Part shown: piece after piece, positions 43,728-47,386 of the stretch
Layout of the letters: each line of letters opens with the position of its first letter
Numbering within the stretch: position 1 is the first letter of the stretch
Source of the DNA: Candidatus Omnitrophota bacterium
Lineage (GTDB): Bacteria > Omnitrophota > Gorgyraeia > Zapsychrales > Zapsychraceae
NCBI GenBank assembly: GCA_020429915.1
Contig: JAGQKV010000015.1
Span: forward strand, 1,593-65,592
Length of the DNA: 64,000 nt
Direction: 5' to 3'
The notes under the pieces: model-generated
What the model was told of the DNA's origin: nothing
The model's input: the letters and a program-made list of their open reading frames with translations, nothing else
The model's database searches: none
Program-made: the position numbers and the translations under genes

Positions 43728-43874
43728 ATATATTTTGAAAATAAATCGTAAGCTACTGTTTTATAACGACTTAACCGATGTCTTCGGAATTATTTACTTG
43801 ACAAACCAGCCTATTCATGTAAGATATAGTTAACAGGAGTTAACAAGAGCTAACTGAACGGGAGATTTTTCAAG

Positions 43875-44849
43875 ATGAATTTAGTCGAAATACTTTCATG
43901 GTCAGATAAAAGATCCAGAGCTTACTTAGAGTAGATCAGGTGGAACGGAAAGCCCAAATGCCCGCATTGTGGGAGCGAGGATCATGTGAGACTTAAAGGA
44001 AAGGCCCCTAGAGCCGGTGTCATTAAGTGTAAGAATAAGGAATGCCGCAAGCAGTATACCGTGACCGTGGCGACCATCTTCCATTCTTCCCACGTTCCCC
44101 TTAGAAAGTGGATCGCGGCCTACTGGCTTATGTGTTCTGCCAAAAAAGGCTATTCGGCTAATCAGTTATCCCGTGACGTAGATGTGACGTATAAGACCGC
44201 TTGGTTTATGGCCCACAGAATCCGCCACGCCATGAGATACAATTCGTTCAAGAAATTGGACGGAGACGTTGAGGTGGATGAAACTTATGTGGGCGGTAAA
44301 GCCAAAAATAAACGCCAGTCATATCACGCCAGAAAAAAGCGTGAAAAAGAACAGCGCAAGACTGGGAAAAACAGCACTAAGGTTCCGGTTATGGCTCTCG
44401 TCGAGCGTGACGGTAGCGTTAAATCTCAAGTGTTGTATCGTGTTTCGGCTAAGAAACTGAGAACGGCAATCGAATTGTATGTTGATCCGAAAGCAACCGT
44501 ACACACCGACGAGCTTCCCCTCTATCGCGGGATAGGACACAAGTTTGCTGGTGGCCATAAGACGGTGAACCATTCGATCAACGAATATGTCAACGGTGAT
44601 TGCACCACCAACACGGTGGAATCATATTTCGCCCTGCTGAAGCGTGGAGTAATAGGAATATATCACCATGTTAGCACGACTCATTTACAAAGATATTGTG
44701 ACGAATTTGTTTTCCGCTGGGATCATAGAAAACTCAGCATCGAAGAGGCTTTCAACCGCGCATTGCAGTTGAGTGATGGGAAGCGACTGTCTTATAAGGG
44801 CAGGATTAAGCGGTTTGCAGATAAGTCTTGGTGGAGAAGTGATATTTAA
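43875..44849 (+). pseudogene. IS1595-family transposase interrupted by an in-frame TAG (expected Gln codon) at 43932-43934
   Basis: The frame from ATG 43875 reads MNLVEILSWSDKRSRAYLE*IRWNGKPKCPHCGSEDHVRLKGK... and continues into the 287-aa ORF that the track starts at GTG 43986. The family consensus is ...YLEQLRW...CPxCG, so the stop sits where the conserved Gln is (CAG to TAG). Confidence 0.65.
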
Positions 44850-45130
44850 TGAGCCACGCGAACCCACAACAGCAACCAGATAAGCCAAGACTGGTTATTA
44901 TAGACTGGGAAGATAGCGTCCAACCCATAGCGCAGTGGATGTATTTATGCGACCTTGACCAACATCAGATTGTAAAGTGTCGGTCTGTTGGATGGTTGAT
45001 TGGCGATGGGCGCAGGGTCAAAGCATTGGCGCAAAATTTGGGTGATATTGGCCGTAAAGATAGCATCCAAGTCAGCGGCATACTTAAGATCCCCGCGCGC
45101 TGCATCACCAGAATTCAGGATTTAGGCTAG
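44849..45130 (+). CDS. Hypothetical 93-aa protein translationally coupled to the transposase (IS passenger or accessory gene)
   Basis: A TAATG overlap links it to the transposase stop. No family call. Confidence 0.35.
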   Translation: MSHANPQQQPDKPRLVIIDWEDSVQPIAQWMYLCDLDQHQIVKCRSVGWLIGDGRRVKALAQNLGDIGRKDSIQVSGILKIPARCITRIQDLG

Positions 45131-45143
45131 AAGGCGGTTATTT

Positions 45144-45290
45144 ACGTTTGCCCTTCGTCTCATCCTGACTGAGGACAGAAGCCCCCAACTGTCTAATTTG
45201 TCTATTAGACAGGCTGTTTGGTTCCCTCATAGCTTTGGAGGCTATGCTGGACATTTTGTTTCCTGTTTCTTTTTTTGGTTTGGTCATTTC
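45144..45290 (-). CDS. Putative small protein (49 aa, Lys-rich N-terminus) with a strong RBS
   Basis: Not in the supplied track. The minus-strand ORF reads MTKPKKETGNKMSSIASKAMREPNSLSNRQIRQLGASVLSQDETKGKRK, and an AAGGAG lies 5 nt upstream of the ATG. A perfect hairpin (GGGAGGC-ttaatt-GCCTCCC, 45306-45325) lies just upstream. Confidence 0.3.
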
Positions 45291-45430
45291 TGACTCCTTT
45301 GTTAAGGGAGGCTTAATTGCCTCCCAATCTGCTCGTCGAGGCTAGACAAAAAAACACAATAAAAAACCCGAAATATACATTGAATAGTTTAAGGCTAGTG
45401 ATAATATGGTTTTAGGGCAAAAAAAAATCT

Positions 45431-45459
45431 TTGACTTTTTTTGCAATTTTTTATATTAT
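45431..45459 (+). promoter_or_regulatory. Near-consensus sigma70-type promoter (TTGACT, 16-17 bp spacer, TATATT/TATTAT) firing toward the antisense of tRNA-like gene 1
   Basis: Read directly in the AT-rich island. Confidence 0.4.
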
Positions 45460-45485
45460 GTTGTACCTTTTAATGCTCTGTTTTG

Positions 45486-45559
45486 CGCCCCCTCCGGGAT
45501 TCGAGCCCGGAACCTCACGTTTAGCGGACGCGCGCTCTATCCAATTGAGCTAAGGGGGC
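45486..45559 (-). tRNA. tRNA-like gene 1 (class I, Arg-like body; loop CCGCUAA implies anticodon GCU; C33 and C54 non-canonical)
   Basis: The minus-strand sequence GCCCCCUUAGCUCAAUUGGAUAGAGCGCGCGUCCGCUAAACGUGAGGUUCCGGGCUCGAAUCCCGGAGGGGGCG folds as a cloverleaf. It has a 7-bp acceptor, a GCUC/GAGC D-stem with G18G19, a 5-bp anticodon stem, a 5-nt variable loop and a 5-bp T-stem. CCA is not encoded. Confidence 0.45.
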
Positions 45560-45678
45560 GACAAAACATAAAAATAGCCCGTGGCGGACATAAAAAATCC
45601 GCAACGTGGTCAAACGTTAATGATCGTGGTACAGGGCCTAATCTGACAACCACGAGCATTTCACGGGCAAATCTGAGA

Positions 45679-45714
45679 AGCCGTGTTGTCATTACTGATA
45701 GCACGGCTTTTCTT
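45679..45714 (+). terminator. Rho-independent terminator candidate on the plus strand (AGCCGTG-16 nt loop-CACGGCT followed by TTTCTT)
   Basis: Read directly. Together with the promoter at 45431 it would bracket a ~245-nt plus-strand transcript. Confidence 0.4.
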
Positions 45715-45862
45715 ATATATATAGTATTACTATGGCACGCGATTTCAATAAAAAACTAGAAAATATTGCCATTCGCTCTTTCTAATCGGAATATGGGAAC
45801 CTTCGGTCGGATGAACTTTTCCTTGCGTAGCAGTTAGTAATGGATTACTATTAAGGAGATAT

Positions 45863-45949
45863 GGGGACGGTGAGACTCGAACTCACAAATCCCGGCTAGG
45901 AGATACTGGATTAGGAATCCAGCGCGTTTGCCAGTTTCGCCACGCCCCC
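45863..45949 (-). tRNA. tRNA-like gene 2 (class II body with long variable arm, A73; anticodon loop UUCCUAA gives CCU)
   Basis: Minus strand: GGGGGCG-UG-GCGA-AACUGGCAA-ACGC-G-CUGGA-UUCCUAA-UCCAG-UAUCUCCUAGCCGGGAUUU-GUGAG-UUCGAGU-CUCAC-CGUCCCC-A. The T-arm is canonical, with U33 and A37. The ~19-nt variable region is Leu/Ser-like, which is unusual for a CCU (Arg-AGG) anticodon. Confidence 0.45.
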
Positions 45950-45965
45950 ACCCTCCCACAAAATA

Positions 45966-46067
45966 TTGCCGCTCCCAGACTTGAACTGGGACTACCAGCA
46001 CGAGAGTTGGCCCGGCCTCCTACAACCTTGCCAATAACTGGCGTGCGATCCATTACACTAAGCGGCA
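45966..46067 (-). tRNA. tRNA-like gene 3 (aberrant; canonical acceptor, D-arm and T-arm, but the anticodon-stem helix encloses a 37-nt insertion and no 7-nt loop)
   Basis: Minus strand: TGCCGCT-TA-GTGT-AATGGATC-GCAC-G-CCAGT...(37 nt)...GCTGG-TAG-TCCCAG-TTCAAGT-CTGGG-AGCGGCA-A. The T-loop TTCAAGT is canonical. The first base is T1:A72. It may be a pseudo-tRNA or a tRNA-like structured RNA. Confidence 0.35.
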
Positions 46068-46078
46068 TCCCTGTAAAT

Positions 46079-46591
46079 CTATTCCTCCCAAGCGGTTGCG
46101 GGACTATCTTGATTTGGCTCAGGCCACGGGTCAATTTCTGCGATCTTTAAGTCTTTGTCGGCGTTATACTTATAAATTGCCGGGCGTCTTCCTGAGCCGT
46201 CTTTAATCCGCTTTATAATTTCTCTGCTCTCAAGTCGGCTGCATACGTTCGAGAAGAAATTCGGTGAGCACTCAATATCTGGGTGCTTGGTGATAAAAGC
46301 CTCCTCAACATCTGTGTATGTGAATGGGCGTTCGAGTGTTTTGACGAGATCTTCAACTAGGGCTGTGCGGTTTACGGTTCGGCTAGACTTATTGGCAGTC
46401 TTTCCAATATTTCTCGACGAGGATTGGCCATTTTCTGCTGCCGAACCACGCAACACCTCTAGTGCGGCGAGTTTTTCGCGGTACTCTTTTTCGATTTGAC
46501 GCTTAAGTCGTAGGTATGTTTTATCATCAATCATATGCTCCCATCTCCTCTCAGGTGAGTCATATATTAACATAATAAGGTGGTTTGTCAA
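46079..46591 (-). CDS. Hypothetical protein, possibly winged-helix DNA-binding, immediately 5' of the tRNA-like cluster; start uncertain
   Basis: 170-aa ORF in the AT-rich island. C-terminal region FTYTDVEEAFITKHP...FFSNVCSRLESREIIKRIKDGSGRRPAIYK. It is not an integrase. Confidence 0.4.
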   Translation of the reverse strand: MTNHLIMLIYDSPERRWEHMIDDKTYLRLKRQIEKEYREKLAALEVLRGSAAENGQSSSRNIGKTANKSSRTVNRTALVEDLVKTLERPFTYTDVEEAFITKHPDIECSPNFFSNVCSRLESREIIKRIKDGSGRRPAIYKYNADKDLKIAEIDPWPEPNQDSPATAWEE

Positions 46592-46603
46592 AGGGGAAAT
46601 GCC

Positions 46604-46732
46604 ATGAAGGAGAAAAAAAAGAAGCAGTTAGGCAAGGTTATCCCTCCGACCGATCTGTCGGTGGAGGAAGCCTTGAAAAAGGCCTTTGAGGGCGATCAGG
46701 AAGAAAGCCCTAAAGACAATAATGGCAAGTAG
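46604..46732 (+). CDS. Putative small protein (42 aa: MKEKKKKQLGKVIPPTDLSVEEALKKAFEGDQEESPKDNNGK)
   Basis: Not in the track (below its size cutoff). A GGGG/AAAGGGG RBS-like motif lies upstream. The A8 tract sits inside codons 3-6. Confidence 0.25.
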   Translation: MKEKKKKQLGKVIPPTDLSVEEALKKAFEGDQEESPKDNNGK

Positions 46733-46759
46733 ATACGTAGATATTGGTTTTTAAAGTAT

Positions 46760-47386
46760 CTAATTCCCGATGTCTTTTGACTCTGAAACGACTTTGGAAA
46801 CGGGTTCGGGGGGCTTGCGGGAGAAGATTTTCTTAACAAACCGGAACATGACTTTGAGAAACCAGACCGAAAATATAATGAAGATGACGACCAGAATCCC
46901 GGCGATTACCGGGTGCGTGCTGATCAAATACAGCACCCCGATCACCGAGACGTCCTCAGTCACGCTGGCCACGGAATTTGTGATGGGTTCGGGTGAGGTG
47001 TTGATCGCAGCCCGGGCGGTGGCCTTGGTGATGTGGGAGTTAAAGGCGACGGTCCCGGTGACCAGCGCGGTGGCCATTTGTATGGACGGATCCGCCCCGT
47101 TCATGGCCATGTATCCCAGAGTCAGCCCCCCTACCGGACGGATAAACGTATGCGCGGCATCCCAGGTGGAATCTACATACGGGACCTTGTCTGCCACGAA
47201 TTCAATGAGGCACAGGATCACCGCGACCGCGATGACCAGCGGGTGACCGAGCACTTCGAGGTTGCCAGGCAGCTGGATCCATTCCATGCGCTGCGCGATG
47301 CCCAAGCCAGCCACGGTGAGATACAGATTGATCCCGGATGCCCAGGAACTGCCCAGCAGAAAACCCAGTGAACTCAATTCTCCCAC
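46760..47386 (-). CDS. DUF4126-family membrane protein (start uncertain; likely GTG near 47386)
   Basis: Polytopic. The family-like N-terminus is ...ELSSLGFLLGSSWASGINLYLTVAGLGIAQRM.... The upstream 30 codons of the ORF are probably not translated. Confidence 0.55.
   Translation of the reverse strand: MGELSSLGFLLGSSWASGINLYLTVAGLGIAQRMEWIQLPGNLEVLGHPLVIAVAVILCLIEFVADKVPYVDSTWDAAHTFIRPVGGLTLGYMAMNGADPSIQMATALVTGTVAFNSHITKATARAAINTSPEPITNSVASVTEDVSVIGVLYLISTHPVIAGILVVIFIIFSVWFLKVMFRFVKKIFSRKPPEPVSKVVSESKDIGN

Follow-up and report, generated by a model that had tools for sequence, protein, structure and literature searches.

The DNA analysed here is a 64-kb window (the whole stretch of 64,000 nucleotides, taken from contig JAGQKV010000015.1 of a Candidatus Omnitrophota bacterium). 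It contains three tRNA-type genes (genes 1, 2 and 3) inside a 2,984-bp transposon of the insertion sequence (IS) family IS1595 (43785-46768). Genes 1 and 2, the only two tRNAs called by ARAGORN (default mode) in the whole window, each join the body of one tRNA identity to the anticodon of another, and mismatches of the same type were found in tRNAs carried by related transposons. The tRNA-type genes and the landmarks of the element that carries them are as follows:

43777-43784, no strand: left target-site duplication GATGTCTT (8 bp), an exact copy abutting the element end
43785-43827, plus strand: left terminal inverted repeat (cGGAATTATTTACTTGACAAACC...), which includes a sigma-70-like promoter (TTGACA-16-TAAGAT) for the transposase (promoter scan, inverted repeat comparison)
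43875-44849, plus strand: IS1595-family DDE transposase gene of 324 codons, with an in-frame TAG at codon 20 (Pfam, NCBIfam)
45485-45559, minus strand: gene 1, a class I tRNA gene with an Arg-like body (A20, G73) (ARAGORN, Rfam, sequence reading, BLAST)
45861-45950, minus strand: gene 2, a class II tRNA gene with a Leu-like body and anticodon CCU (ARAGORN, Rfam, BLAST)
45966-46067, minus strand: gene 3, a tRNA-Glu(CUC)-like gene with U1:A72, A73 and a 30-nt hairpin-forming insert between positions 32 and 33 (ARAGORN intron mode)
46746-46768, minus strand: right terminal inverted repeat, reverse complement gGGAATTAGATACTTTAAAAACC, identical to the left end at ~18/22 positions (manual count)
46769-46776, no strand: right target-site duplication GATGTCTT (8 bp), an exact copy abutting the element end

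Gene 1 was labelled tRNA-Ser(gct) (75 nt) by ARAGORN in the scan of the window, and scored 60.1 bits against Rfam RF00005 (gathering score 29; E = 1.6e-10 over the 64-kb window). In the minus-strand reading and the cmscan alignment, the anticodon stem is CGCGU/ACGUG and the anticodon loop is CCGCUAA (C33, anticodon GCU, A37). The acceptor stem has 7 bp, the D-loop AAUUGGAUA has A20 after G18G19, the variable loop has 5 nt and the T-loop CUCGAAU has C54. The body is that of a bacterial tRNA-Arg (class I, A20), to which GCU supplies C35 and U36, and tRNA-Arg genes were the only E. coli matches by BLAST (76.6% identity across the full length). The anticodon and loops are not those of tRNA-Arg (NCG or YCU, U33, T54): gene 1 has G34, C33 and C54 instead, and its decoding is probably impaired by C33 and C54. 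Assignment to tRNA-Ser was ruled out by the 5-nt variable loop and the length of 75 nt, where a long class II arm is required; the 'Ser' label was given because ARAGORN labels from the anticodon alone.

Gene 2 was labelled tRNA-Arg(cct) (90 nt) in the same scan, and scored 57.5 bits against RF00005 (gathering score 29; E = 8.6e-10 over the 64-kb window). It has a 3-bp D-stem, an 11-nt D-loop, a variable arm of ~19 nt with a 5-bp stem, a canonical T-loop, A73 and a canonical 7-nt anticodon loop, UUCCUAA (anticodon CCU); no departure from the canonical loops was seen in the cmscan alignment. The long variable arm, 3-bp D-stem, Leu-type D-loop and A73 are those of a bacterial tRNA-Leu, with CCU standing in place of the NAG or YAA of Leu. 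All annotated full-length phage matches by BLAST were tRNA-Leu. Against the covariance model R1 (built from IS-borne class II tRNAs, gene 2 included), gene 2 scored 82.6 bits, and its nearest relative was L174_UGG (69% identity). Gene 2 looks decoding-competent. Its loop, UUCCUAA, is also the exact reverse complement of UUAGGAA, an AGG-type loop; a similar loop, CUAGGAA, is present in L167.

The descriptions of both genes in an earlier note on this DNA, which was made by reading the letters, were borne out: for gene 1, a class I tRNA with an Arg-like D-arm, the loop CCGCUAA, C33 and C54 (ARAGORN, Rfam, cmscan alignment), and for gene 2, a class II tRNA with a long variable arm, A73 as in Leu, and CCU (ARAGORN, Rfam, alignment). 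The anticodons GCU and CCU were called by ARAGORN and the Rfam covariance model as they had been read by hand. The note had also proposed that identities were swapped between the two genes. Body and anticodon do disagree in each, but they were not exchanged with each other, because the body of gene 2 is Leu-like and not Ser, and that of gene 1 is Arg-like. Of gene 3, the note had said that it begins with T1:A72 and lacks an anticodon. T1:A72 is present and a normal anticodon loop is absent; an anticodon-like CUC does exist, in an interrupted loop that can be reconstituted.

As it stands, gene 3 was called neither by default ARAGORN nor by Rfam RF00005. ARAGORN in intron mode reported a tRNA-Glu(ctc) with a 30-nt insert after position 32, and when the insert was deleted, default ARAGORN gave a standard 72-nt tRNA-Glu(CUC) with U1:A72, which matched phage tRNA-Glu and tRNA-Gln genes by BLAST. 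Because deletion restores a normal tRNA, the 37 nt noted earlier in the anticodon region can be accounted for as 7 loop and 30 inserted nucleotides. The insert folds as a separate simple hairpin stacked on top of the anticodon stem. No bulge-helix-bulge motif (3-nt bulge/4-bp helix/3-nt bulge) could be drawn from the sequence reading or the fold, and gene 3 was rejected as a tRNA with a bulge-helix-bulge or group I intron: the insert is a simple hairpin of 30 nt (group I introns exceed 200 nt). With 30 nt inserted in its anticodon loop, gene 3 as structured would be unable to decode.

Extra nucleotides that recall this insert were also seen in viral contigs: Leu-type class II tRNA-like genes in L166 (10304-10440), L169 (1069-1195) and L170 (2914-3042 and 2625-2743) carry 46-61 extra nt in or beside the anticodon or variable region, and in one gene of this set a Phe GAA loop occurs together with a second, embedded hairpin that resembles a T-arm.

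The carrier is an IS1595 element by its DDE transposase (Pfam DDE_Tnp_IS1595, 7.9e-40; NCBIfam IS1595, 5e-64), its zinc-ribbon region (interrupted by the TAG), its terminal inverted repeats and its 8-bp duplication. Placing the transposase start at the ATG at 43875 brings back the N-terminal zinc-ribbon region of the family but crosses the TAG (43932-43934). This TAG, at codon 20, lies in a variable alignment column and the remaining frame is intact; it might reflect recent inactivation by mutation or control through readthrough. The evidence on mobility consists of this in-frame stop and a single insertion site across the 24 contigs read; the one copy of the locus that was retrieved, L001, was 100% identical to the window and offered no strain variation from which to judge purifying selection. 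The AT-rich island described in the earlier note is present (45.8% GC at 44-46 kb vs about 55% elsewhere in the window), whereas its suggestion of an integration hotspot gives way to genes lying within an IS1595-family transposon that is bounded by inverted repeats and an 8-bp duplication.

Two other delimitations were tried and rejected. The 30-nt inverted repeat 43798/46591 does not mark the element ends: the true right end, with its duplication, is at 46768, and 46562-46591 is an internal copy. For a phage origin of the island, blastn against a phage collection gave no match, and the flanking genes are chromosomal housekeeping genes.

Related elements were collected with two transposase scans, which yielded 160 loci (numbered with the prefix L; 43-53% identity, many phyla), and their tRNAs were detected with ARAGORN, Rfam and a custom covariance model from the class II set. 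Pairs of inverted repeats delimited elements of 2.0-4.9 kb in 86 of the 160 loci, and because of these sizes the whole subfamily is taken to carry passenger DNA. The conserved end motif GG.AATTATATACTTGACAAAC forms perfect terminal inverted repeats in L061 (7-bp duplication) and L006 (8-9 bp); in the window it starts at 43785, and a diverged inverted copy of it ends at 46768. In 17 of 81 related loci, the transposase is preceded by the motif ACTTGACAAACC. The cargo is varied: PIN, HicAB, Panacea-like and ClpP-like genes, a DNA methyltransferase, a PADLOC candidate and small Lys-rich peptides. L006 (4824-9627) is a 4.8-kb member of the subfamily that carries a 502-aa DNA methyltransferase and other cargo, with the duplication AAAAAGTG.

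Transposase-adjacent tRNA genes whose class contradicts the anticodon were found in 10 of the 160 loci (~6%), from Chloroflexota, Actinomycetota, Nitrospira, Fibrobacterota and metagenomes, and wherever tested these tRNAs exceeded the Rfam threshold. Class II Leu-like bodies with A73 carry the Pro anticodons UGG (L008, L019, L083), CGG (L004, L084) and AGG (L108) or the Gly anticodon GCC (L085); a class II Ser-like body with G73 carries the Ile anticodon GAU (L085); class I Arg-like bodies carry GCU (L019) and CGA (L060). The anticodon in L087 is GUC, and L071 gave a 4-nt anticodon call. Within placed element boundaries all tRNAs were mismatched (7/7), vs 1/14 outside (Fisher p = 7e-5), and the sole mismatched tRNA outside belongs to a locus with an unreliable boundary. 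Usually the IS-borne tRNA closes its cargo operon, which is convergent with the transposase gene.

The pairings follow a restricted pattern. Leu-like and Ser-like class II bodies carry non-cognate anticodons (Pro, Arg, Gly, Ile), never those of Leu, Ser or Tyr, and Arg-like bodies with an intact anticodon arm are altered at position 34 only (GCU, GCU, ACU), with C35 and U36 kept. The covariance model from the class II set revealed no hidden degenerate tRNAs beyond the ARAGORN calls in ~150 other elements. ARAGORN intron-mode matches in L094 and L144 were judged to be false positives in GC-rich coding sequence. No conserved protein partner (synthetase, modifying enzyme or toxin) of the IS-borne tRNAs was found among their neighbours, which are unrelated to one another.

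A reverse search in viral contigs, for a Leu-type D-arm with NGG at positions 34-36, returned more class II 'Pro' tRNAs. Three tRNAs reached from this side (L167, L174, L175) are once more convergent with an IS1595-type transposase gene at its 3' end, and a phage tRNA array (L177/L179) has a class II Leu-like UGG tRNA beside an Arg-like class I ACU tRNA. The same array (L177 169-1777, L179 8477-10085) also contains several tRNA-Lys and tRNA-Tyr genes with odd D-arms, which may bear on evasion of anticodon nucleases.

Among nine class II members, 22 of the 24 cloverleaf pairs covary. The closest comparison is that of L004 with L084, whose transposases are 81% identical and which are collinear through the tRNA at 78.6% nucleotide identity: their tRNAs differ by at least six double compensatory changes in the D, anticodon and T stems (manual count), and CGG is kept in both. 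As judged from these alignments, the IS-borne tRNAs are structurally maintained RNAs, not random debris.

Two further comparisons concern other IS-borne tRNA genes. In L083 (1789-1879) and L108 (5341-5430), A18 (D-loop UAG, not UGG) occurs with G55 (T-loop UGCAAAU), a possible tertiary covariation of the G18-psi55 pair. L060 (5901-6149) and L121 (about 1355), whose transposases share 91% identity, are distinguished by a clean indel of 249 bp bearing the tRNA-like gene and its flanks; direct repeats were not obvious at this indel. By this comparison, the tRNA module is acquired or lost in one piece.

The possible expression of the tRNAs in the window involves three features, as follows:

45721-45748, minus strand: promoter-like site TTGAAA-16-TACTAT, upstream of a cloverleaf-like fold and gene 1 (9/12 matches, weak)
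46079-46534, minus strand: ORF151, an open reading frame (ORF) for a protein with a coiled-coil helix and a winged-helix domain (PadR/MarR-like) (AlphaFold, Foldseek)
46562-46591, minus strand: internal third copy of the inverted repeat/promoter (TTGACAAACC..., TTGACA-16-TAATAT, extended -10 TG), facing ORF151 (promoter scan)

The stop codon of ORF151 lies 11 nt before gene 3, and the end of gene 3 lies 15 nt before gene 2. Because of these gaps and the promoter derived from the inverted repeat, the simplest reading is a single transcript: the sigma-70-type promoter at 46562-46591 would drive ORF151, gene 3 and gene 2 together. Gene 1 lies ~300 nt downstream of gene 2 and may be transcribed from a weak promoter-like site of its own. 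Release of the tRNAs by RNase P and 3' processing would follow, and CCA would be added afterwards, a step proposed because CCA is not encoded.

The AlphaFold model of ORF151 (mean predicted local distance difference test score, pLDDT, 85) has a long helix followed by a predicted winged-helix domain, for which the top Foldseek matches were PadR, MarR and BlaI regulators. An exact match of the protein (P0001) occurs in 84 database blocks and 52 contigs, with an identical neighbourhood in 24/24 contigs read, and 71 remote homologues were found. The ORF151 family was absent from the other IS loci, and the proteins in the corresponding position in L060 and L061 were not similar to ORF151 by BLASTP. 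The near-identical, inward-facing promoter copies of inverted-repeat type at 43798-43827 and 46562-46591 could be a shared operator for ORF151. The sole other context with an ORF151 homologue (P0022) ahead of an irregular tRNA is L184 (1093-1624), where a terminator-like hairpin lies between the two; that tRNA (76 nt, anticodon AGC) has a poorly paired anticodon stem and is followed by an ORF whose N-terminus resembles the helix-turn-helix of a transposase. Another ORF151-family gene has a 2'-dG-II purine riboswitch aptamer upstream of it, on the opposite strand (L185 2467-2537; 65.9 bits).

Bacterial leucyl- and seryl-tRNA synthetases (LeuRS, SerRS) do not read the anticodon, and bacterial arginyl-tRNA synthetase (ArgRS) reads A20, C35 and G/U36 but not position 34. 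Because of these properties, the anticodon changes seen in the family are mostly those expected to keep charging and alter decoding, a combination that defines a missense suppressor tRNA. We therefore tentatively favour, without putting it beyond an even balance of doubt, the reading that the IS-borne family consists of aminoacylatable hybrid-identity tRNAs that misread sense codons. Of the options listed in the earlier note, mistranslating tRNAs, as a putative function, are the best supported. For gene 2, charging with Leu is expected because bacterial LeuRS does not read the anticodon; with all canonical elongator features, a Leu-type body and A73, it would read AGG (rare in the host, 2.0 per 1000 codons) and cause low-level Arg-to-Leu misdecoding. 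Gene 1 keeps the ArgRS determinants A20, C35 and U36 and could insert Arg at AGC/AGU. The copy in the window has probably decayed in part, and the cargo class that it exemplifies is widespread and appears to be subject to selection; the comparison suggests that mobile DNA spreads tRNAs able to misread the genetic code.

If these are misdecoding tRNAs, they could serve as a toxin/addiction module, as a defence module or for mistranslation regulated by ORF151. A more specific proposal is that the IS1595 subfamily and some phages spread identity-swapped tRNAs as a mistranslation weapon, a winged-helix-controlled RNA toxin (Pro/Arg codons to Leu, Ser AGY to Arg) for addiction, abortive infection or inter-element conflict; this is speculative and, in our estimate, quite unlikely.

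Several observations weigh against misreading by hybrid-identity tRNAs. The copy in the window looks partly decayed (TAG in the transposase, C33/C54 in gene 1, the insert in gene 3): gene 1 departs from two near-universal positions, U33 and T54 (both C), and gene 3 is disrupted by its insert. The CCU of gene 2 could be an accidental inversion of a hairpin loop and not a selected anticodon; a template-switch inversion could have produced it because the flanking stem is a perfect hairpin. Among the relatives, a pyrimidine at position 37 (L084, L019_UGG, L108) and a weak anticodon stem (L060) are unusual for working decoders, and the covariation may partly stem from different source tRNA-Leu genes and not from selection after capture. 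Prolyl-tRNA synthetase (ProRS; G35/G36) and ArgRS (C35/U36) read anticodons and might charge some of the tRNAs 'correctly'. Finally, constitutive misreading of Pro as Leu or of Ser as Arg should be costly to the cell.

The alternative that survives best, possible though rather unlikely, is that these are tRNA-shaped RNAs that are not used in decoding: decoys or sponges for tRNA-targeting toxins such as those carried by these elements, RNase P/Z processing signals that set the 3' end of the cargo operon and shield the convergent transposase gene, or ligands of the co-encoded winged-helix protein. Such roles would suit a tRNA that is usually last in the cargo operon and abuts the 3' end of the convergent transposase gene, in a subfamily whose cargo is rich in toxin-antitoxin and defence-type genes (PIN, HicAB, Panacea-like, ClpP-like, PADLOC candidate). 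Gene 3, which as structured should not decode, and relatives with a non-purine 37 or abnormal loops (such as the 4-nt anticodon call in L071) point the same way, and some irregular tRNAs near toxin-antitoxin genes were reported to be charged but unused in translation (PMC5389517). A decoy or a signal, however, would not need a canonical 7-nt loop with U33 or the retention of CGG (L004, L084); the changes confined to position 34 in Arg-like bodies are left unexplained, and no one partner protein family goes with the tRNAs.

Unlikely, too, is that the window genes are decaying relics, ordinary helper tRNAs that were once captured and are accumulating mutations in a copy that is dead and fixed. 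A tRNA-Arg(UCU) helper in the ancestor is plausible because the genes of the element are AGA-rich (12 of 325 transposase codons are AGA, vs 1.6 per 1000 in the host), and the copy has marks of decay: the transposase is interrupted by TAG, the right inverted repeat has diverged from the left, the same insertion was found in 24/24 contigs read (L001 being 100% identical), gene 1 breaks U33 and T54, gene 3 is disrupted and the gene 2 loop could be a hairpin inversion. Yet the stems are fully paired in all three genes, when random decay, with ~42 stem positions and 3 anticodon positions to strike, should have hit the stems far more often. The same type of mismatch, with compensatory evolution, occurs in independent elements of other phyla, which argues against decay, and no IS-borne Arg-like tRNA with UCU or CCU was found in the related elements.

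Correctly charged helpers for rare codons, in unusual bodies, are very unlikely. Here gene 2 would be charged by ArgRS (C35/U36) and the NGG relatives by ProRS (G35/G36), and the element's own codons would then be better translated with nothing misread, in keeping with the ~12-fold enrichment of AGA and AGG in the transposase vs host genes, with the retention of NGG while position 34 varies (UGG, CGG, AGG) and with the common carriage of tRNAs by mobile elements and phages. Gene 2, though, reads only AGG (2 transposase codons) and not the abundant AGA. Serylation of class I bodies bearing GCU or ACU is excluded, since bacterial SerRS requires a long variable arm. LeuRS should still accept Leu-type bodies with A73, and the tRNAs with Gly GCC and Ile GAU do not have the acceptor-end elements for glycyl- and isoleucyl-tRNA synthetases (discriminators A73 and G73).

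Codon reassignment, genome-wide or in the element only, has nothing beyond the mismatch itself in its favour and can hardly be entertained: in the alignment of 161 transposases the window AGG (codon 22) falls in a column that is Arg in 127/160 and AGC (codon 267) in one that is Ser in 130/161, codons matching the tRNA anticodon of other elements likewise fall in columns of the standard amino acid, TAG serves as an ordinary stop (8/42 host ORFs end with it), and the genes are part of an inserted mobile element, outside the core genome. The same codon-by-column analysis of 161 transposases contradicts recoding of the transposase gene that the element itself carries. Rescue of the transposase TAG by amber suppression was also rejected: the CUA in both loops is out of register (positions 35-37 of CCGCUAA and UUCCUAA), and genes 1 and 2 have no CUA, UCA or UUA at 34-36.

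For hybrid-identity tRNAs that misread sense codons, the nearest bacterial precedents are the allo-tRNAs and the polycistrons of irregular tRNAs from soil and sediment metagenomes, in which anticodon and identity elements are mismatched (Mukai et al., 2017, NAR; PMC5389517). The irregular tRNAs at times form runs of two or three genes, have toxin-antitoxin and transposon-related genes nearby, and include the anticodons GCU and GUC; charging was reported for some of them, and activity as missense or nonsense suppressors in E. coli for some (PMC5389517). The mismatched anticodon, the clustering, GCU and the mobile/toxin-antitoxin context are shared with the IS-borne tRNAs. Allo-tRNAs, in contrast, have an 8/4 or 9/3 acceptor/T-stem and mostly Ser identity, whereas genes 1-3 and their class II relatives are 7/5 and the family bodies are Leu-like or Arg-like. 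The link to a transposon-related ORF in that paper is anecdotal, and includes neither a delimited IS1595 cargo nor the Leu-body/Pro-anticodon type that dominates here.

Hybrid-identity tRNAs that mistranslate sense codons are also known as tRNAProX/ProRSx from Streptomyces and relatives (reviewed in PMC11415595). In that system the tRNAs have Pro bodies with the anticodons of Ala, Thr or Asn and are accompanied by a synthetase paralogue of their own, whereas no synthetase-like gene was found beside the tRNAs here by protein domain searches and neighbour comparison. The nematode nev-tRNAs, described by Hamashima et al. in 2012, are reportedly class II and Leu-charged, with Gly or Ile anticodons, LeuRS being said to ignore the anticodon. 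Having a class II Leu-type body with the anticodon of a class I amino acid, they are the closest functional analogue of the IS-borne tRNAs; unlike these, they are eukaryotic, nuclear and not on transposons, and have different anticodon sets (in L085, GCC is on a Leu-like and GAU on a Ser-like body).

Passenger genes in the IS1595 family were reportedly described by Siguier, Gagnevin and Chandler in 2009. Known IS1595 elements resemble that of the window in DDE_Tnp_IS1595, inverted repeats starting with GG, 8-bp duplications and variable passengers between the transposase gene and the right end. A literature search returned no description of IS1595 elements with tRNA passengers, and no report tying missense-suppressor or mistranslating tRNAs, or long-variable-arm Pro-anticodon tRNAs, to mobile elements in this way. 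Phages, plasmids and integrative and conjugative elements also carry tRNA genes. In typical phage tRNAs, body and anticodon are matched, and these tRNAs are thought to tune codon supply or to replace nuclease-cut tRNAs; the arrays L177/L179 hold the UGG class II and ACU Arg-like pairing.

Natural tRNAs with discordant body and anticodon are rare. In the analysis described here, such tRNAs are recurrent, structurally conserved passengers of a defined transposon subfamily, in several phyla and in phage contigs. This gives a route to discovery, by inspection of the interval between the transposase gene and the right end of IS1595-subfamily elements, and offers a testable system for whether mobile elements use programmed mistranslation. 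A natural set of Leu-body and Arg-body missense tRNAs may also be of interest to genetic-code engineers. For annotation, labels drawn from the anticodon alone (tRNA-Ser, tRNA-Arg, tRNA-Pro) may give the wrong amino acid inside insertion sequences.

The remaining features of the element are as follows:

44849-45130, plus strand: ORF93, a small protein whose start overlaps the transposase stop (ATGA) (18 homologues, 47-62% identity)
45431-45459, plus strand: promoter-like site TTGACT-17-TATTAT, antisense to gene 1 (10/12 matches, consensus only)
45577-45668, strand undecided: cloverleaf-shaped fold of 92 nt between genes 2 and 1 (minimum free energy structure: 7-bp closing stem GCCCGUG/CACGGGC and three hairpins)
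45675-45712, plus strand: intrinsic terminator with a 17-bp stem and T-run (hairpin scan, folding)
46604-46732, plus strand: small Lys-rich ORF of 42 aa with the motif P..L..EEALKK, which recurs in related elements

The order in the element is thus transposase, ORF93, gene 1, a 300-nt structured spacer, genes 2 and 3, ORF151, the internal inverted repeat/promoter and the Lys-rich ORF. The fold at 45577-45668 is more stable than expected on both strands (z = -3.0 on the minus strand, -3.7 on the plus strand); it has no tRNA loop motifs, and an Rfam search gave no match. The terminator hairpin at 45675-45712 reached -26.6 kcal/mol (z = -8.2) on the plus strand vs -15.8 on the minus strand. It is predicted to end either the transposase-ORF93 transcript or a short RNA from 45431-45459, and either RNA would run antisense through gene 1. 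The opposite-strand promoter-terminator pair that the earlier note had pointed out was located, as putative elements, at 45431-45459 and 45675-45712; promoter-like sites in the region were no more numerous than in shuffled sequence.

Homologues of ORF93, a family that gave no Pfam match, are again located 3' of IS1595 transposases in L162-L164; the homologue in L165 belongs to a phage-like gene cluster. The small Lys-rich ORF shares the Lys/Pro-rich motif P(V/I)SL.PL.F(E/N)EAL..LL.VKP (window 46604-46732) with L004 (7427-7624), L060 (5734-5886) and L061 (about 2700-2870), and several clusters of such Lys/Pro-rich peptides occur as cargo across the 86 elements of the IS subfamily.

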